Shown here one piece after another: positions 15,219 to 24,070 of a DNA stretch of 64,000 bases (position 1 is its first letter; each line of letters opens with the position of its first letter). The position numbers and the translations under genes were made by a program. The notes beneath the pieces are model-generated. The model worked only from the letters and a program-made list of their open reading frames with translations. It was not told the origin of the DNA and made no database searches. Source of the DNA: Promethearchaeota archaeon (GTDB taxonomy: Archaea; Asgardarchaeota; Lokiarchaeia; Sigyniarchaeales; SOKP01); the NCBI GenBank assembly GCA_011364925.1, contig RDOA01000012.1, positions 15,048-79,047 on the forward strand, given 5' to 3'.

Positions 15219-15779
15219 ATGAATAAAGAAAGCGTACAAGAACTAATCACACAACTTATTAAGGAGATTGAAGGGAATGAGGGAGAATTACGCCCTGCCA
15301 CGAAAGAAACTCCAAGACGAGTAGCCAATGCGTATAGCGAAATATTTGATGGCTATCGAACAGACATAGACAAGGAAGTGAAAGTCTTTAAAGCAAACTA
15401 TAGCGAGATTATTGTATCTAAAGATATTAAGTTTTATAGCATGTGCGAGCACCATATTCTCCCTTTCTACGGTACTGTTGACATTATATATATGCCAGGC
15501 GAGTATCTTTTAGGAATTTCAAAATTCGCACGAGTAGTTAATTATTTTTCTCATAGATTAAATGTTCAAGAAAAGATGACAGATGACATTGCAAATTATT
15601 TAATGACCTGTTCGTTAAAACCAAGAGGAGTGATGGTTATAGTCAAAGGTACTCATTTATGCGAGATAATGAGGGGTGTAAAGCAGTCTAATCCTTTAAT
15701 AATAACATCTGCTATAAAGGGAATATTTAAAACTAACCTTGCTACGAGATCAGAAGCGTTGGAACTATTAAATTTATAA
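15219..15779 (+). CDS. folE: GTP cyclohydrolase I (FolE type IA)
   Basis: TP.RVA.AY.E.F.GY, the hallmark SMCEHHILPFYG, and QERLT-like VQEKMT. 186 aa. Confidence 0.9.
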   Translation: MNKESVQELITQLIKEIEGNEGELRPATKETPRRVANAYSEIFDGYRTDIDKEVKVFKANYSEIIVSKDIKFYSMCEHHILPFYGTVDIIYMPGEYLLGISKFARVVNYFSHRLNVQEKMTDDIANYLMTCSLKPRGVMVIVKGTHLCEIMRGVKQSNPLIITSAIKGIFKTNLATRSEALELLNL

Positions 15780-15837
15780 CCCTAAACATATTATTACTGA
15801 CAATAGTTATTTTTTTATCAAAATCATAAAAATTTTT

Positions 15838-17019
15838 GTGTGGGTTATGTCCAAAACCTTCATACATAGTAATTACGGTTTGATTGGAGTCGGCTTAGAA
15901 TTTAAAAAGAACATCACAGTCGAAGTTAATGAAGATGGAATAATTAATAATCTTTCTTATGATGATGTAAGAGAAGATATCAATATTTCGTCGAAACATC
16001 CTACTTTTTTATTAATACCTGGTTTGATTAATTCTCATATTCATATTTGTGACAGTTTTGCTAAAGAACAAGGTTTTAATAAAAATTTAATAGAAGTTGT
16101 CGCCCCTCCTAATGGGATTAAACATAAATTGCTAGAAAATACTTCAGAAGCGATCAAAGTACAAGGAATAAAAGAAGCAGTTAAGGATATGTTAGCTAAT
16201 GGCATAACTCTGTTCGTAGATTTTAGAGAAAATGGAATAATTGGCGTTAACATATTAAAAGATGCTTTAGAAAATTCACCAATTAATTGCATTATTTTAG
16301 GAAGATTCAAAAATCTTGAAGAAGCAGAGGTTATTATAAAAAAAGCTAATGGAATTGGATTTGCAAGTTATGATCAGCTTTCTCAAGATCATAAAAATAT
16401 AATAATTGGATTAAAAAATAAATATAGAAGCAAGATTATTGCTTGTCACGATGCAGAGTTATCACGGAACGAGTTACTATTGAAGGATATAATAAGAGAT
16501 GGAATAATTGATGTTGTTATTCACGGGACGCACTATACGATGGAAGATTTAAAAAAGATTAAGGAAAACCATATAATGTTAGTTTTATGCCCAAGATGTA
16601 ATGGTTATTTTGGGTGTGGTTTTCCACCTATTAAGGAATTATGCTATCTAGAAATCCCTGTTAGTCTTGGAACAGATAATGTAATGGCAAATAACATTGA
16701 TTTATTTGAAGAGATGCGTTATTTATATAGGATTTTCCGTGTATTGGCTGCTAATAAAAGTAAGAATATTTTAACATCAAAAGAGCTGTTAAAAATGGTA
16801 ACTATTAATGCTGCAAAAAACTTTGGTCTGTTAGAGAAATTTGGTTCTATTTCAGTGGGAAAATATGCGGATTTTTCTCTATTAAGCCTTTCTGATTCAA
16901 ATTATTATTCACATGAGTTTGATAGTGAAAATATTTATAACATAATTGTTCAAAGAACAAGGGCAGAGAATATAAAAAGGACTTATATTAAAGGTGAGGT
17001 AGTATCTGAAAGAAAGTGA
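15838..17019 (+). CDS. Amidohydrolase-superfamily deaminase-type enzyme (cytosine/guanine/MTA deaminase-like)
   Basis: PGLINSHIHI (HxH metal site), ACHDAE (HxxE motif of the deaminase subgroup), VIHGTH, and LGTDNV (terminal Asp). Confidence 0.75.
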   Translation: MWVMSKTFIHSNYGLIGVGLEFKKNITVEVNEDGIINNLSYDDVREDINISSKHPTFLLIPGLINSHIHICDSFAKEQGFNKNLIEVVAPPNGIKHKLLENTSEAIKVQGIKEAVKDMLANGITLFVDFRENGIIGVNILKDALENSPINCIILGRFKNLEEAEVIIKKANGIGFASYDQLSQDHKNIIIGLKNKYRSKIIACHDAELSRNELLLKDIIRDGIIDVVIHGTHYTMEDLKKIKENHIMLVLCPRCNGYFGCGFPPIKELCYLEIPVSLGTDNVMANNIDLFEEMRYLYRIFRVLAANKSKNILTSKELLKMVTINAAKNFGLLEKFGSISVGKYADFSLLSLSDSNYYSHEFDSENIYNIIVQRTRAENIKRTYIKGEVVSERK

Positions 17020-17029
17020 ACATCCTTAT

Positions 17030-17677
17030 GTGATTTTAAGTGCTGCTATGACAATTGATGGAAAAATTGCATCAAAAAATGGAGATCCAGAAATTTCTGA
17101 TGAAGAGGATTGGAAATCTGTTCATAAACTTCGAACAGAGGTGGATGCGATTATGGTTGGTAAAGGATCCATACTGAAAGATAATCCCAAATTACATATA
17201 AAATATTACGATCATAACGGGTACTATCGTATTGTATTGGATAGCAATCTTTCCATTCCAATTGATTCGAATATTATTACCTATGAACCCGATACTTATC
17301 CAACTATTATAGTAACAACCGAAAACGCTCCTGTTGATCGAATTAGGGAATTTGAAGCAAAAAATGTAATTATTATTAAGTCTGGAAGTGGGAATGAAGT
17401 TGATATTGTTAAATTGATGCCCATTTTATACGGAAAAGGCATAAAGAGGATCCTTTTAGAAGGTGGGGCCAGATTAAATTGGAGTTTTATCAAAAATCAT
17501 TTAGTAGACGAAATTAGAATCACAATAGGACCCTGGATGGTAGGGGGTAAGGATGCCTTGAGTTTAGTGGAAGGAGAGGGTTTCGCAAAAATGTGTGAAA
17601 GCCCAAGATATTGCTTATCAAATGTGAAGAAGAACAATAACTATATAACTCTTTATTATAAGAAAGAAAAACCATGA
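17030..17677 (+). CDS. RibD C-terminal-type reductase (2,5-diamino-6-ribosylamino-4(3H)-pyrimidinone 5'-phosphate reductase, ArfC/Rib7-like)
   Basis: ILSAAMTIDGKIASKNG....S.E.DW..VH.LR..VDAIMVGKG.I..DNP.L and ILLEGGARLNWSF. Apparent GTG start; the in-frame HPYV upstream suggests the start is uncertain. Confidence 0.75.
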   Translation: MILSAAMTIDGKIASKNGDPEISDEEDWKSVHKLRTEVDAIMVGKGSILKDNPKLHIKYYDHNGYYRIVLDSNLSIPIDSNIITYEPDTYPTIIVTTENAPVDRIREFEAKNVIIIKSGSGNEVDIVKLMPILYGKGIKRILLEGGARLNWSFIKNHLVDEIRITIGPWMVGGKDALSLVEGEGFAKMCESPRYCLSNVKKNNNYITLYYKKEKP

Positions 17678-18801
17678 AAACCACTAAAGAAATAGAACAA
17701 TTGGAAAAGATACCAATAAAAGCGCTGAAAGAAAAAATTAAAAGTATAAGAGAAGAACTTCCTAAAGAAGAACAGAATATTGTTACTTTTTCTAAGAACT
17801 TTACACTTTCTCTTTCAAACTATTGTCAAAATCAATGTGGATACTGTTTCTATAACCAGCATGTATCTAAAGAGATTCTAGAACAGTATATTGCACTAAT
17901 TGAAGAAAATAAAATTAATGATTTAATCCAAGCAGCAATAAAATTTGGATGCACAGAAGCTTTACTAATGTCTGGTGAATCTCCTGATAAGTTCGAAGTA
18001 GTTCAAAAAGAATTGGAAAAAAGAAACTATAGCAATTTCAACCAATTTGTGAAAAGATTAAGCGAAAAGTTGTTAGAATTCAATCTTTTACCCCATACAA
18101 ATATAGGTGCGCTCTCATTCGATGAATTAAAATATTTAAAGGATACAAATGCTAGTATGGGTTTAATGATTGAGAGTACCTGTGAAACTCTTTCCAAACC
18201 TGGTGGTGTTCATGAAAATTCACCAAATAAAACGCCAGAAACTAGAATTAAACACATTATAGACGCGGGAAAGTTAAAGATTCCCTTTACTACAGGCTTA
18301 TTATTAGGAATTGGTGAGAGATTTCAAGATCGCATAAAGGATTTGTACTTAATCAAAGAACTTCATCAAAAATATGGTCACATCCAAGAAGTAATAATAC
18401 AAAATTTTACAGAAAAATCGAGGATTCCCTATCATCCGAAAAAACCAATAAATATAGAAGAAACTCTCAAAACTGCGGGTGTTGCAAAATTAATATTTGA
18501 AAACGATATAGCGATTCAAGTTCCTCCTAATTTAATTCAAAATTACGAAAAGGAAGCTTTAGAAATGGGAATTGATGATTTTGGAGGCATATCTCCATTT
18601 ACTATAGATTATATTAACCCCCACCACGCTTGGCCAAAAATACCACTCTTAGAAAAGTTATGCATGAGTTTTGGATATGAACTTAAGGAAAGGCTTCCTA
18701 TATATAAGAAATTTATAGATAAAAACGGATTTTGTTCTGAAATTATTAAAAAAACGATAAAAAGGATTGATCTGAATGTTAGAAGCGAAAAAGATTCTTA
18801 G
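17674..18801 (+). CDS. cofG: FO synthase subunit 1 (CofG, radical SAM)
   Basis: VTFSKNFTLSLSNYCQNQCGYCFY matches the CofG-type CxxxCxxC context rather than the NRNINxTN context of MqnC/MqnE. ATGA overlap with the upstream gene. Confidence 0.75.
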   Translation: MKTTKEIEQLEKIPIKALKEKIKSIREELPKEEQNIVTFSKNFTLSLSNYCQNQCGYCFYNQHVSKEILEQYIALIEENKINDLIQAAIKFGCTEALLMSGESPDKFEVVQKELEKRNYSNFNQFVKRLSEKLLEFNLLPHTNIGALSFDELKYLKDTNASMGLMIESTCETLSKPGGVHENSPNKTPETRIKHIIDAGKLKIPFTTGLLLGIGERFQDRIKDLYLIKELHQKYGHIQEVIIQNFTEKSRIPYHPKKPINIEETLKTAGVAKLIFENDIAIQVPPNLIQNYEKEALEMGIDDFGGISPFTIDYINPHHAWPKIPLLEKLCMSFGYELKERLPIYKKFIDKNGFCSEIIKKTIKRIDLNVRSEKDS

Positions 18802-19876
18802 AAAAGCTGAAGATTCAGTTGAGATTAGCCCGGATGAAGCTTTAATCCTATTAAAAATCACGGGTAAAGATTTCACAGCTTTACAACAGACTGCTGATCA
18901 GATTTGTTTTGAGAAGAAGAATAATCTCGTAAGTTTTATCATAAATCGAAATATAAATTTTACAAATGTCTGTTATCAAGGATGTAAATTCTGCTCGTTT
19001 TCTGTTTCAAATAAAAATAAAGACAGTTTTTTAAAAACTATTGAAGAAATAAGAGAGGATGTTACTGAAGCTAAGAACGCAGAATGCACTGAAGTATGCA
19101 TCCAAGGAGGGATTAATCCAGAATTAGATTTCGACTATTATTTAGAGATTTTGAAAATAGTAAAGGAGATTGATTCAAATATCCATACTCACGCTTTTTC
19201 TCCTCAAGAAGTGTTCTATATGTCAAAATTATACGGCTCATCGATTTATGATGTGTTAAAGGAGTTAAAAAAAGCAGGTTTAGATTCTATGCCAGGAACA
19301 GCAGCAGAAATTTTAGTAGATGATATCAGAAAAGTTATTTGTCCAAATAAAATTACCACTTCTCAATGGATTGATGTGATAAAATCAGCACATGAATTAG
19401 GAATCCCCACTACTTCGACTATGATGTATGGTCACATTGAAGATTTAAAGGACAGAATAGAACACCTCGAGATTTTAAGGAATATACAGAAAGAAACTTC
19501 CGGGTTCACCGAATTTGTCCCTCTACCCTTTGTTAAAGAAAATCCTCTTTTATCTAAATTGACAGATTTCCCTCTAAAACCTAGCTATGGAATGGCAGAT
19601 TTAAAATTGTTTGCGGTAGCAAGAATTTTCCTCAACAATTACATTGATAATATTCAATGTTCTTGGGTAAAGTTGGGCCCAAAATTCGCTCAAGTTTCTC
19701 TATATTACGGAGTAAACGACTTTTCTGGTACGTTAATGGAAGAGAACATTTCAAAAAGCGCAGGAGCCGAATTTGGAGAATATTTAGCTCCGGAAGAGAT
19801 GATCTCTATCATTAAAGCTGCCGGCAAGAAACCTGTGCAGAGGGATACGCTCTATAAATTATTAAAATTCTACTGA
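18776..19876 (+). CDS. cofH: FO synthase subunit 2 (CofH, radical SAM)
   Basis: VSFIINRNINFTNVCYQGCKFCSF. Overlaps cofG by 26 nt. Pairing with a CofG-type gene favours CofH over MqnE. Confidence 0.7.
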   Translation: MLEAKKILRKAEDSVEISPDEALILLKITGKDFTALQQTADQICFEKKNNLVSFIINRNINFTNVCYQGCKFCSFSVSNKNKDSFLKTIEEIREDVTEAKNAECTEVCIQGGINPELDFDYYLEILKIVKEIDSNIHTHAFSPQEVFYMSKLYGSSIYDVLKELKKAGLDSMPGTAAEILVDDIRKVICPNKITTSQWIDVIKSAHELGIPTTSTMMYGHIEDLKDRIEHLEILRNIQKETSGFTEFVPLPFVKENPLLSKLTDFPLKPSYGMADLKLFAVARIFLNNYIDNIQCSWVKLGPKFAQVSLYYGVNDFSGTLMEENISKSAGAEFGEYLAPEEMISIIKAAGKKPVQRDTLYKLLKFY

Positions 19877-19887
19877 TTATTAAAACT

Positions 19888-21765
19888 CTAACGATTCCTT
19901 GTATCTTGAAGAAAATTTAAAATGTAGCGCTGAGCTATCAAATCTGAACTAATCTTGCCCAAAACCTTACCCTCTTGAACAACGGGCATAGCTGAGATCT
20001 GATATTGTTCGAATTCCCTTACGATATCTAAAATATTGAAATCTGGAGCGGCGGTGACTACTTTTTTTGTCATAATTTTAGTGACAATTCCATCACAAAA
20101 TCCTTCCGCGGAAGCCTTTGTTATATCCCAATCTGTAACCACACCAACTAATTTATCATCTGAGATGACAGCAATTATCCCACTATTATTATCTATCATG
20201 GATTTAGCTGCATCTTGAATTGTACTACTTGAATCTATCATTGGTATGGTAACCATTATATCCTTAACTGTAAGTTCACTTTCTTTAGCGTTAAGTCGTT
20301 GAAGACTTATTCGCTCAGCAGCTTGAGACGGTAAAATGTCTTGGTGTGTAGTTAAAATATCAATTAATTCAATCATATTATTACGAATTACATTTTCGCG
20401 ATACTCTACACCGGCTTCTAGGCGGTTTTTCGAGAGTTTTCTGAATTTGGCAGAATTATTTTGTAGCCATCTTTCCACAGCTTCCTTATTTCCAAGAATC
20501 TCTGGCGGAAATTGAACTTCCTCTGGCGATTTAACAATGTGTTCTTGAGCAGCAAAAATTACTCCTCCAGAATTAACCAAATAATCGTTGGCTATCATTA
20601 CTCCCTTTTCACGATAGACTATCTGTTCCATTCGTGTTCTAGCAGCTTTTCTGTTTGGATCTGGAGAATAAGTATTTGCTCCTTCTATGATAACCTTCCA
20701 ATTGCCCATATGCTCAACTAGCATGGATGCATTATCTGAGGGCCTTACTCCTAAATAATTAAATATCGGGGCTGCAGGTACAAAACAAAAAGCATTTTCA
20801 CGTAGTAGATCATTTGCATTTGTAGAGAACTTTGTTGGATGTTTATATCCTTCAGCGATTATGTTATTTTCAAAGTAGGTTTGCGTTGCCATTTTTTTAT
20901 TCTCCCAAAACTCAAATAATTCTTCAGTTGGAAGACCTGCAAAATTATAAAGATACCCTTCTAGGTCGCTTATACCTATTACTCTGGCGTTAGGAATTCG
21001 CTCTTTAAGTATTCGTGTAGCGTGAGCACCAACCGCACCAAATCCTTGTATCAAAATAGTTAATTCTTGATTAGCTGGAATTTCTAAATTTTCGAATTGT
21101 GGAAGTACTCTCATTCGGGGAAGTATTTCCAGTAGAGTTTGTAATGCTATGATAACCCCTCCAGCAGCAGCTCCGAGTTCATCGATTCTATTTCCACCCA
21201 TATCTGCGGGTTTAGAAACAGCGCTATCAAGACCGTTTTCCATCGCTATTAATTTCATATCGGCATCATTGGTACCAACATCAGGTCCAGGTACGTAAAT
21301 TTCTTTATATCTGCGAATTAATCGCGCAAATCCTCTTACTATCTCTTCATGAATATCATCAGGTAAATTTCTTTCTGCCACTATCCCCGATTTTCCACCC
21401 CCATAAGGAAGATTCGCAGCCGCATTCTTTAATGTCATTCCCCTTGCTAGATTTTGGATATCTGAAGGTTTAATATCGGGGAGCATTCTTATACCCCCCA
21501 TTGACGGAGAACCCATACTTAGGTTATCTACCACAAGGTATCCTCCAATTTCTAATTCGGAATTCTCGTCCCAAACGCAAGCTACAATTTGCGGTCCCAA
21601 TTCATCCCTTACGATCCCTAATCGAGATAATAAATGTTCGTCAAGGTTGCTGAACTCTAAATAACATTTTCCATCTTCTTTTTTAAGACGTGTTAACAAC
21701 ATCGCTTCAGGAAGGTGAGATTTAAGAAAAATTTCCATTTCTTTAGGTATCATGATTGATCTCAC
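19888..21765 (-). CDS. Glu/Leu/Phe/Val-family amino-acid dehydrogenase fused to a C-terminal CBS-domain pair
   Basis: MGGIRM, the catalytic-lysine loop PYGGGKSGI, the NAD fold IQGFGAVGAH, then two CBS modules (VKDIMVT...GIIAVISDDKLVGVVTDWDI and IMTKKVVTAAP...ISAMPVVQEGKVLGKIS). Confidence 0.8.
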   Translation of the reverse strand: MRSIMIPKEMEIFLKSHLPEAMLLTRLKKEDGKCYLEFSNLDEHLLSRLGIVRDELGPQIVACVWDENSELEIGGYLVVDNLSMGSPSMGGIRMLPDIKPSDIQNLARGMTLKNAAANLPYGGGKSGIVAERNLPDDIHEEIVRGFARLIRRYKEIYVPGPDVGTNDADMKLIAMENGLDSAVSKPADMGGNRIDELGAAAGGVIIALQTLLEILPRMRVLPQFENLEIPANQELTILIQGFGAVGAHATRILKERIPNARVIGISDLEGYLYNFAGLPTEELFEFWENKKMATQTYFENNIIAEGYKHPTKFSTNANDLLRENAFCFVPAAPIFNYLGVRPSDNASMLVEHMGNWKVIIEGANTYSPDPNRKAARTRMEQIVYREKGVMIANDYLVNSGGVIFAAQEHIVKSPEEVQFPPEILGNKEAVERWLQNNSAKFRKLSKNRLEAGVEYRENVIRNNMIELIDILTTHQDILPSQAAERISLQRLNAKESELTVKDIMVTIPMIDSSSTIQDAAKSMIDNNSGIIAVISDDKLVGVVTDWDITKASAEGFCDGIVTKIMTKKVVTAAPDFNILDIVREFEQYQISAMPVVQEGKVLGKISSDLIAQRYILNFLQDTRNR

Positions 21766-21860: not shown

Positions 21861-23714
21861 ATGACTCAGAAAGACAAAAAACTTCTACTTATAGGTATCG
21901 ATCAGGCAATTCCTTATCTAATTAATAAGTTCATCAAGGAGAACGCAATTCCAAACATAGCTAGATTATGTGAGAATGGTGTATTAGCAGAGGCATATTC
22001 TTGTGCCCCTTGTGATACTCCTACTAACTGGACTACAATTGCTACTGGAGCCAAAACAGCGACTCATGGTGTCACGAGTTTTTATTTGCACTTACAAGGT
22101 GAACCTTTAGATTTAGGCGCAAAGTTAAGGTCGCGAACTCAATTATCTCGATACTGCCAAGCAGAATTTATATGGGATGTTGCTGAAAAAAGAGGTCTAG
22201 TCCCGTTTATAATCAATTATCCCTCTGGATGGCCTGGTAATTTTAAAAAAGGGGCTATGAGTCTATACACTTGGAGAACACCCGAATCGTATCAGAGGAT
22301 GGTAAGTCCCTCGAAATCGTATAAATTCACTATGAAAGCTACAAAGAATACACTCAGTGGAAGTGGGGATGAAGATTTAATAAAACTAGTTTTGATAATT
22401 AAAGGGAAAAGTATCGTTAGTCCACACACTGAGAAAATTATACTTTCGATTAACAGCGCAGGTGATATATCATTGATCATAAATGGAGTGCAAGAATTTA
22501 TAAAAGAAATGGAATGGAGTAGCTGGATGAAAATAAGGATAAATACCACTAATGGGATTTTACCATGTTTTTATAGGATAATGATCGTTGGCTTTAATGA
22601 TGAAATTGTTACAATTAAACGCTCGACAGTGTATAATGCAAAAGGATGGACAAATCCTGAGTCTTTCGGAGAAGAATTAATTAAAAATGTATTTGAGTAC
22701 GATTTTCCTCACGAGCACGAAGTCGAATTTATGACTAAGGAAAAGATAAGTTCTTATTTGGTATCGGCGCGAAATGAGGCCTTAATGCTTGCTGAAGCGA
22801 TTAAATACGCCAAACGATCGTTAAATTGGGATGTGTGTTATTTTCATTATCATCCTTTAGATACTATAAATCACGAATCCCTTGCTTATATGCATAAAGA
22901 ATCCCCTTTTTATACCGAAGTAAAAGCTAAAAAAACTTTCAATACTGTAGAAACAGCTTATAAAATAGTGGACGAGTTAGTCGGAAACCTGATCAATCAT
23001 TGCATAGAAAAAGATACGACTGTTGTATTTATTTCGGATCATGGTGCTATTCCAACTTGGAAAACAATAAACATTCCTTCATTTTTTATGAAATCAGGTT
23101 TAACTAAATACAACTGGAATGAATCTGAGAAAAAGTACGTAATAGATTGGAAAGAATCAATTGCATTTCCCTATATGGAACCTCCATTTGTTTGGGTTAA
23201 CCTTAAGGGTAGAGATCCACATGGAGTTGTAAAAAGCTCAGAATATGAAGATGTAAGAGATTCAATTATTGAAACACTTTATAGCTTAAAGGATCCTAAC
23301 ACTAATGAAGGAGTTATCGAGCAAGCTTTAAGAAAAGAAGAAGCGAGTAATCTTGGATTGAACGGAGAGAGGATTGGAGATGTGGTGTATTTTCTCAAAC
23401 CTCCATATGGAATTTTCGATGGAAATTTAGGAACGCTCGATGCAAGTAGTATGACAAAAAGTGAGTATAATAAATCAGACATAGATATGTCTCGCTCTTT
23501 TTTTGGAGCTCATGCGTATTATCTCCCCACTACCCGATTTGGCAATTATTCGATTTCTGTACCGTTTATAATAAGTGGTCCAGGAATTAAAAAAGGTATT
23601 AAACTAGATAATATCGTAAATCTGGTTGATGTTGTTCCTACCCTCTCCCATTTGCTAAATATCCCCGAGCCTAAAAATTCAGAAGGTTGCATTTTATATG
23701 AAATAATGGAGTAG
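21861..23714 (+). CDS. Alkaline-phosphatase superfamily enzyme (type I phosphodiesterase/nucleotide pyrophosphatase-like)
   Basis: LLLIGIDQA, the nucleophile context CDTPTNWTTIATG, FISDHG, and GAHA. Confidence 0.65.
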   Translation: MTQKDKKLLLIGIDQAIPYLINKFIKENAIPNIARLCENGVLAEAYSCAPCDTPTNWTTIATGAKTATHGVTSFYLHLQGEPLDLGAKLRSRTQLSRYCQAEFIWDVAEKRGLVPFIINYPSGWPGNFKKGAMSLYTWRTPESYQRMVSPSKSYKFTMKATKNTLSGSGDEDLIKLVLIIKGKSIVSPHTEKIILSINSAGDISLIINGVQEFIKEMEWSSWMKIRINTTNGILPCFYRIMIVGFNDEIVTIKRSTVYNAKGWTNPESFGEELIKNVFEYDFPHEHEVEFMTKEKISSYLVSARNEALMLAEAIKYAKRSLNWDVCYFHYHPLDTINHESLAYMHKESPFYTEVKAKKTFNTVETAYKIVDELVGNLINHCIEKDTTVVFISDHGAIPTWKTINIPSFFMKSGLTKYNWNESEKKYVIDWKESIAFPYMEPPFVWVNLKGRDPHGVVKSSEYEDVRDSIIETLYSLKDPNTNEGVIEQALRKEEASNLGLNGERIGDVVYFLKPPYGIFDGNLGTLDASSMTKSEYNKSDIDMSRSFFGAHAYYLPTTRFGNYSISVPFIISGPGIKKGIKLDNIVNLVDVVPTLSHLLNIPEPKNSEGCILYEIME

Positions 23715-23779: not shown

Positions 23780-24070
23780 ATGATAACGATAATTGCTACA
23801 CTTCAAGTTAAACCAGGAAAAATGGTTGAAGCCATTGAAGTTCTAAAAGAAATGGCTGCAAACATTAAATCTTCAGAACCAGGAACGTTGCAATACATCC
23901 CCCATACTGTAAAGGGAGAAGGACTCGAGAACACTATAATTTTCTACGAGAAATATGAAAATGAAGAAGCTTTTCAAGTTCATAGTAAAAATCTAAGAAT
24001 AACGGCAGCTAACTTGGCTCCTTTGTTAGCTCCTGGAAGAGATATTAAATCATGTTTTGAAATTAAATAA
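23780..24070 (+). CDS. ABM-domain (antibiotic biosynthesis monooxygenase-like) protein
   Basis: 96 aa. ITIIATLQVKPGK......L.E......SEPG.L.Y......FYEKYENEEAFQVH is typical of the ferredoxin-like ABM fold. Confidence 0.7.
   Translation: MITIIATLQVKPGKMVEAIEVLKEMAANIKSSEPGTLQYIPHTVKGEGLENTIIFYEKYENEEAFQVHSKNLRITAANLAPLLAPGRDIKSCFEIK

Follow-up and report, generated by a model that had tools for sequence, protein, structure and literature searches.

Gene content and organization of the locus

We analysed a 64,000-nucleotide (nt) stretch of an Asgard archaeal genome (contig RDOA01000012.1, positions 15,048 to 79,047; hereafter the window), which carries a gene for an amidohydrolase (Amh) among genes for the synthesis of FO, the deazaflavin chromophore of coenzyme F420. 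Amh is a candidate for the pyrimidine deaminase of this pathway, and its probable function is the subject of the present work. The source assembly has a completeness rating of 100%, and the closest protein matches are labelled Hermodarchaeota, Lokiarchaeota and Promethearchaeota. The features of the locus, in the coordinates of the window, are the following:

15219..15779, + strand: folE, GTP cyclohydrolase (GCH) I of type IA (PF01227, 200 bits; NF006826, 197 bits, cut-off 162)
15780..15846, + strand: AT-rich spacer of 67 nt between folE and the amidohydrolase gene, with a run of seven T at about 15811-15817 that was read directly
15847..17019, + strand: amidohydrolase (Amh), 390 amino acids (aa), predicted pyrimidine deaminase, with an alternative GTG start at 15838 (PF01979; NF005552)
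17030..17677, + strand: arfC, 2,5-diamino-6-ribosylamino-4(3H)-pyrimidinone 5'-phosphate reductase of the RibD C-terminal type (TIGR01508, 198 bits, cut-off 186; PF01872)
17674..18801, + strand: cofG, radical-SAM (S-adenosylmethionine) subunit of FO synthase (NF004884, 388 bits, cut-off 209)
18776..19876, + strand: cofH, subunit of FO synthase (5-amino-6-ribitylaminouracil--tyrosine 4-hydroxyphenyl transferase; NF005609, 469 bits, cut-off 426; PF19288)

Profile searches confirmed the five plus-strand open reading frames (ORFs) of the initial annotation, which had been made from the sequence alone, as FolE, Amh, ArfC, CofG and CofH, and the last three all score above the curated cut-offs of their equivalog models. 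The short gaps and overlaps that it had listed can be read directly in the sequence: arfC and cofG overlap in an ATGA at 17674-17677, and the cofH ATG at 18776 precedes the cofG stop (TAG, 18799-18801), an overlap of 26 nt. A gap of 10 nt separates the Amh stop (TGA, 17017-17019) from the GTG start of arfC at 17030. The start of Amh itself had been placed at the GTG at 15838; it is most likely the ATG at 15847, homologues of 389-390 aa being aligned from that methionine.

The same annotation had read all five genes as one operon. This holds for Amh, arfC, cofG and cofH, which are the tightly coupled genes, and does not hold for folE, which is less tightly joined and lies 67 nt upstream. Because folE is set apart by the AT-rich spacer, and because the same slot is occupied by a divergent mptA in sister species, we consider Amh-arfC-cofG-cofH to be the conserved core of the operon. 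The spacer is a possible internal terminator or promoter region; in those relatives where mptA is divergent, Amh would need its own promoter within it. A promoter and terminator scan with bacterial-type models gave nothing above chance.

Family, catalytic residues and fold of the amidohydrolase

The best NCBIfam model for Amh is NF005552 (PRK07213, 'chlorohydrolase'), which is also the sole model that it matches over the full length (262.5 bits, model positions 10-378 of 382). The next-best models reach at most 101 bits and match the C-terminal half alone, as do the DadD model NF005557 (95.6 bits, cut-off 522), the MtaD model NF012037 (43 bits, cut-off 779) and the guanine deaminase models (at most 77 bits, cut-offs 351-375). 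No cytidine-deaminase zinc-binding domain (PF00383) was detected in Amh by profile search.

An alignment of 33 diverse family members, with residues numbered from the ATG at 15847, shows H64-x-H66, H201-x-x-E204, H226 and D277 in every sequence, and the HxH, HxxE and terminal Asp motifs noted initially are therefore real. The family-specific residues K92, C248 and R370 are likewise invariant in this alignment, while D125-F-R-E128 is invariant in a second alignment of 15 sequences and at least 90% conserved in the 33. Together, HxH on strand 1, HxxE on strand 5, H on strand 6 and D on strand 8 of the TIM barrel place Amh by pattern among the deaminases (COG0402) within the amidohydrolase superfamily.

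An AlphaFold model of Amh built on the 33-sequence alignment (predicted local distance difference test, pLDDT, 93.2; predicted template modelling score, pTM, 0.93) found its best PDB matches by Foldseek among COG0402 deaminases, namely MTA (5'-methylthioadenosine)/adenosine deaminases, TM0936, AtzA, guanine deaminases and an isocytosine deaminase, with query-normalised TM-scores of 0.77-0.87, E-values of 1e-25 to 1e-19 and identities of 13-21%. We found no solved structure of any close Amh relative. The COG0402 structures compared (guanine deaminases 6ohb and 2uz9; isocytosine deaminase Vcz, 7ww2; 4dyk; 4f0r; TM0936, 1p1m; AtzA, 4v1x) share with Amh the fold and the HxH/HxxE/H/D residues, and among them the guanine and isocytosine enzymes act on a 2-amino-4-oxopyrimidine group, as is predicted for Amh. 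Amh differs from them in its length (390 aa against about 430-470), in residues of its own (K92, D125-F-R-E128, C248-P249 and R370) and in its gene context.

Relation to the published archaeal candidate

Orthologues of the RibD-type deaminase are apparently missing in Archaea (PMC5397151). A candidate archaeal deaminase, 'PyrD', was put forward because it often clusters on the chromosome, and co-occurs, with genes for riboflavin (Osterman, Overbeek & Rodionov 2010, as cited in PMC5397151, where the candidate is still to be tested), and HVO_2483 and MJ0699 have been named as candidates that both 'require experimental confirmation' (PMC8305020). The role name used for it in SEED is 'Pyrimidine deaminase archaeal predicted'. 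The idea that Amh is a pyrimidine deaminase is not new: it rediscovers this 2010/2017 prediction.

Strong but indirect evidence suggests that Amh belongs to the MJ0699/HVO_2483 candidate family (NF005552). The model is matched at E<=1e-30 in the control genomes of M. jannaschii, H. volcanii, S. acidocaldarius and M. acetivorans; the Haloferax family member scores 289 bits against it, and the Amh of one Asgard genome (G050), which lies in a full ribB-ribC-ribH-arfA-Amh-arfC-creatininase operon, scores 323 bits. In a maximum-likelihood tree, a single archaeal clade of 45 rows (support 96/95) includes the Amh of the window together with members from Haloferax, Methanosarcinales, Nitrososphaerota and Bathyarchaeia, all Asgard copies and the two fusion proteins described below, while bacterial COG0402 homologues fall outside it. 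The initial annotation had considered that Amh might cluster with DadD-type or MTA deaminases; its poor scores against the DadD and MtaD models and its position in this separate archaeal clade indicate that it does not.

Amh and the PyrD candidates are alike in their family (by best full-length model, phylogeny and gene neighbourhood) and in the predicted step, an EC 3.5.4.26-like reaction on the ribityl form. In contrast to them, the Amh of the window sits on a divergent Asgard branch, shares about 30-35% identity with thaumarchaeal and haloarchaeal members and scores under the model cut-off. It is also joined to cofG and cofH in a genome without riboflavin synthesis, and would thus serve FO/F420 only.

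Conservation of gene neighbourhood and gene fusions

The initial annotation had held that a lack of synteny with arfC elsewhere would speak against a pyrimidine deaminase. In a sample of 63 archaeal Amh loci, one genome per species, arfC lies directly downstream of Amh on the same strand at 30 loci (29 detected by script and one, L017, by inspection), and within 3 kb of Amh at six more. This arrangement occurs in Asgard archaea, Bathyarchaeia, Nitrososphaerota, Aenigmatarchaeota and Methanosarcinales, among others. The gene order at most Nitrososphaerota loci is ribH-arfA-Amh-arfC, and at most loci of Nitrososphaerota and Bathyarchaeia arfA and/or ribH are found within 4 kb of Amh. A full rib operon that contains Amh is present in G050 and in G018.

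Two fusion proteins, both placed inside the archaeal clade, connect Amh with enzymes of the same branch. In P0179 (636 aa) Amh is fused to RibD_C, and in P0205 (542 aa) a creatininase, a member of the family of ArfB, is fused to Amh. P0179 thus has the architecture of bacterial RibD with another deaminase fold. The N-terminal domain of bacterial RibD and fungal Rib2 resemble Amh in the predicted reaction, on the 2-amino group of a diaminopyrimidinone, and in having a RibD_C-type reductase as partner, even as a fusion in P0179. They differ in that RibD and Rib2 have a cytidine-deaminase fold, whereas Amh is a TIM-barrel amidohydrolase, which would make it a non-orthologous replacement.

At two loci of Loki-type relatives a further gene is inserted between Amh and arfC: one encodes a 504-aa protein with a faint DUF4379 match (L090:7333-8847), the other a 160-aa Arf/Ras-type small GTPase (L094:7324-7806). 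The Amh of a contig labelled 'uncultured Nitrososphaerota archaeon' (L013) is identical to that of an Asgard genome (G068, family f13; L139), which suggests that one metagenome-assembled genome is present under two taxonomic labels.

Pathway content of the genome and of other Asgard archaea

In the genome to which the window belongs (100% complete), tblastn searches found FolE, Amh, ArfC, CofG and CofH as single copies, and found none of RibB, RibH, RibC, RibA and ArfA. Profile searches of this genome with PF02649, PF00925 and PF05165 gave no matches, RibA, ArfA and MptA thus being absent, and FolE, the sole match to PF01227, is its only GTP cyclohydrolase of any known type. The search for lumazine synthase (PF00885) gave no match in any of 13 close genomes, while all 14 control genomes were positive. 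With lumazine synthase, riboflavin synthase and RibB all missing, the operon can serve no product other than FO/F420, and the organism is predicted to be a riboflavin auxotroph that keeps the pyrimidine branch for FO alone. Genes for making F420, and for methanopterin enzymes that depend on it, have been reported from Asgard archaea (PMC8498797).

No deaminase of the RibD/Rib2 type was found in this genome, whose sole deaminase of the cytidine-deaminase fold (PF00383) is a 164-aa dCMP-deaminase/ComEB-like protein. In a relative (G008), a PF00383 ORF of 397 aa was considered as a possible RibD and rejected, as it encodes an AID/APOBEC-like deaminase with an EAD7 effector-associated domain (385 aa at contig C32, L142:3950-5107). 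It adjoins a gene for a PRTase-CE-type protein and looks like part of a conflict or defence system.

The genome also has a single creatininase-family protein (PF02633, 217 bits; genome G000, contig C70:97053-97802, equivalent to L110:1480-2232, - strand). It scores 30 bits against the ArfB model and is 32% identical to the creatininase at the end of the G050 operon, which itself scores 40 bits. The family is present in 8 of the 13 close genomes and missing from some nearly complete sister genomes. This protein may be an ArfB-like formamidase kept in a genome without ArfA.

We extended the survey to 161 Asgard genomes with a completeness of 80% or more. Amh is present in 80 of these, RibA in 62 and ArfA in 20, and lumazine synthase (PF00885) in just 32, so that most Asgard lineages, judged by gene content, look like riboflavin auxotrophs. 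Within the archaeal family of the window, genera g6, g9 and g10 have a ribC-ribH-arfA cluster elsewhere in the genome. The genomes sampled from genera g1 (that of the window), g5, g7 and g8 gave no match to ArfA, RibA or lumazine synthase; in these genera Amh-arfC-cofG-cofH is intact in nearly all genomes and at every locus fetched. Another family, f7, is without lumazine synthase and has the same Amh-arfC-cofG-cofH operon while keeping RibA. In f7 a pathway for FO alone thus goes together with an ordinary GTP cyclohydrolase II, and the absence of this step from g1, g5, g7 and g8 therefore stands out. Family f9 has RibA and is without both Amh and lumazine synthase.

Proposed function of Amh

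We propose that Amh is the archaeal pyrimidine deaminase within a conserved Amh-arfC-cofG-cofH unit that makes FO, a reading to which we assign a probability of about 70%. The candidacy advanced in the initial annotation gains support from the synteny with arfC, the fusions to ArfC and creatininase, the deaminase fold and residues, the lack of RibD/Rib2 and the poor match to DadD and MtaD; the comparative tests that were run all favour a pyrimidine deaminase of the ArfC/CofGH branch. The proposed pathway would begin with the ring-opened GTP product 2,5-diamino-6-ribosylamino-4(3H)-pyrimidinone 5'-phosphate, the ribosyl side chain of which would be converted to ribityl by ArfC. Amh, as a mononuclear-metal enzyme of the guanine/adenosine-deaminase subgroup, would then hydrolyse the 2-amino group to yield 5-amino-6-ribitylaminouracil 5'-phosphate, a phosphatase would remove the phosphate, and CofH and CofG would make FO by condensing the resulting compound with tyrosine. 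We infer the substrate of Amh, and likewise that reduction comes before deamination, an order taken from the Methanocaldococcus pathway (PMC5397151).

Several observations weigh against this proposal. The genome has neither GTP cyclohydrolase II nor III, which leaves the GTP-opening step of the pathway unaccounted for, and the true substrate of Amh could therefore differ from the one proposed, for example by being a triphosphate. At 26 of the 63 loci, in haloarchaea, Thermoplasmata and some Methanosarcinales, there is no arfC near Amh. The score of Amh against NF005552, 262 bits, lies under the curated cut-off of 294, and the equation of its family with MJ0699/HVO_2483 rests on matches in the control genomes and on Haloferax orthologues rather than on locus tags or sequences. 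The literature searched contains no enzyme assay for any member of the Amh/PyrD family.

Other functions have to be weighed against the deaminase of the pyrimidine branch. Amh follows arfA directly in many operons, and some relatives have no ArfB-type gene (the creatininase family occurs in 8 of 13 genomes), so one might consider Amh a formamide hydrolase that replaces ArfB and deformylates 2-amino-5-formylamino-6-ribosylamino-pyrimidinone phosphate, alone or besides deamination. We regard this as improbable: the HxxE motif and the overall residue pattern are those of deaminases, a creatininase gene occurs in the Amh operon of G050, and P0205 joins a creatininase to Amh in one protein, which points to two separate steps, and lineages relying on RibA, an enzyme whose product no longer carries the formyl group, have Amh as well.

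It is highly improbable, in our judgement, that Amh is a deaminase of the DadD/MtaD type acting on 5'-deoxyadenosine, MTA or S-adenosylhomocysteine and clearing the inhibitory 5'-deoxyadenosine released by CofG and CofH, even though it shares an operon with these two radical-SAM enzymes and its top Foldseek matches include the MTA/adenosine deaminases 4dyk, 4gbd, 4f0r and TM0936. Identity to those structures is 18-21%, and the matches to NF005557 (96 bits, cut-off 522) and NF012037 (43 bits) cover the C-terminal half alone. Moreover, the constant partner of Amh across phyla is arfC, often in the order ribH-arfA-Amh-arfC, most of the linked operons are without a radical-SAM gene, and the fusions join Amh to ArfC and creatininase and not to radical-SAM proteins. 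The fusions, in pointing to the riboflavin/FO pyrimidine branch, also speak against an enzyme of the pterin branch that would act together with the adjacent FolE or MptA and deaminate pterin, dihydroneopterin or guanine. A GTP cyclohydrolase I-type gene does always adjoin Amh in the archaeal family of the window; this adjacency is gone outside that one Asgard family, whereas the link to arfC, arfA and ribH stays, and with guanine deaminase models at no more than 77 bits (cut-offs 351-375) such a role appears extremely improbable.

The locus bears on a known gap: deamination, like dephosphorylation, is among the steps of archaeal riboflavin/F420 precursor synthesis for which no enzyme is proven, and the operon gives independent support to a long-standing candidate. 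It also offers an unusually clean test bed: with riboflavin synthesis dropped, the sole reason to keep Amh and ArfC is the supply of FO synthase. New in the present work are the restriction of the operon to FO, the fusion proteins, the finding that four different GTP cyclohydrolases can stand upstream of Amh, and the lack of a known enzyme for the first step in four genera.

The gene upstream of Amh and the GTP-opening step

The FolE of the window looks like a canonical GTP cyclohydrolase I: it retains the CEHH, QE and H-x-C motifs, scores 146 bits against the structure of the Thermus enzyme (1wm9), and reaches 176 bits against TIGR00063, just below the cut-off of 182. The established role of GTP cyclohydrolase I is the supply of pterins. 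The initial annotation had placed folE in the operon; the role so given to it is not supported in that form, as the slot upstream of Amh is variable in relatives. It is occupied by arfA in the Asgard families f6, f10, f17 and f20, by a divergent ribA in G011 and G158, by a divergent mptA in every genus of the family of the window, and, in some g1 genomes and a single g6 genome (G031), by folE in the same direction as Amh.

Within g1 the slot is bordered by JAB and RING-membrane genes at one end and by Amh-arfC-cofG-cofH at the other, and these flanks are identical at loci with mptA (L118, L092, L126-L129) and at loci with folE (L010, L105, L106, L108, L123). Each g1 genome has either mptA or folE, one only; the exceptions are G007, of this genus, and G012, of the same order, whose MptA matches are partial fragments. 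The MptA proteins of sister genomes score at or above the MptA equivalog cut-off, with one just short of it (214 against 220). The exchange of mptA (GCH IB type) and folE (GCH IA) is an in-situ non-orthologous displacement of a single GTP cyclohydrolase I-type enzyme.

This raises the question of whether FolE here, and MptA in the sister species, in each case the single GTP cyclohydrolase I-type enzyme of the genome, starts FO synthesis in the Lokiarchaeia-type genera that lost the ribC-ribH-arfA cluster by supplying the ring-opened intermediate. The intermediate of GTP cyclohydrolase I and the product of GTP cyclohydrolase II differ in phosphates alone. Under such an entry route, 2,5-diamino-6-ribosylamino-pyrimidinone triphosphate or its formylated precursor would be captured by ArfC and Amh, a single enzyme would feed both the methanopterin and the deazaflavin branches, and GTP cyclohydrolase II or III would not be needed. 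We considered that the adjacency of mptA or folE to the operon might track the loss of ArfA, which it does not: it is also found in g6 and g9, which keep arfA elsewhere, so that a position beside the operon, taken by itself, says little on whether FolE or MptA feeds it. We know of no precedent for a flow from a GTP cyclohydrolase I-type enzyme into the flavin/deazaflavin branch. The bypass of FolE and FolQ by RibA and TrpF in Chlamydia (PMC4161248) is alike in that the riboflavin and pterin branches exchange a ring-opened diaminopyrimidine intermediate; it differs in its direction, from GTP cyclohydrolase II to pterins, the question here being the reverse. A study of the creatininase-type formamidase BrbF (PMC9478397) left the GTP-opening enzyme unidentified and did not implicate FolE. 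All in all, we hold entry through FolE or MptA to be doubtful, and a non-homologous GTP cyclohydrolase of unknown type elsewhere in these genomes is at least as likely.

The four genera of one Asgard family that keep the FO operon without a known GTP cyclohydrolase II or III thus present a second, unreported gap. If FolE or MptA fills it, this would be a new entry route into flavin and deazaflavin chemistry; if not, these genera must use an enzyme still to be discovered. In both cases the outcome affects how F420 capacity and vitamin B2 dependence of Asgard archaea are inferred from genomes.

Genes flanking the operon

Convergent to cofH lies a gene for a Glu/Leu/Phe/Val-type dehydrogenase (GDH) fused to two CBS domains (19888-21765, - strand), and further on a gene for a 96-aa ABM-domain protein (23780-24070, + strand); both are conserved beside the operon in genera g1 and g5. 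Between them, the window has a gene for a 617-aa protein of the nucleotide pyrophosphatase/phosphodiesterase type (21861-23714, + strand; PF01663, with sub-threshold matches to PF00884 and PF01676), which is absent from that position in L010, L118 and L092. This protein could be a candidate for the dephosphorylation steps, or could be unrelated to them. At the Loki-type locus L090, two genes of the sulfatase/phosphodiesterase type are found upstream of mptA.

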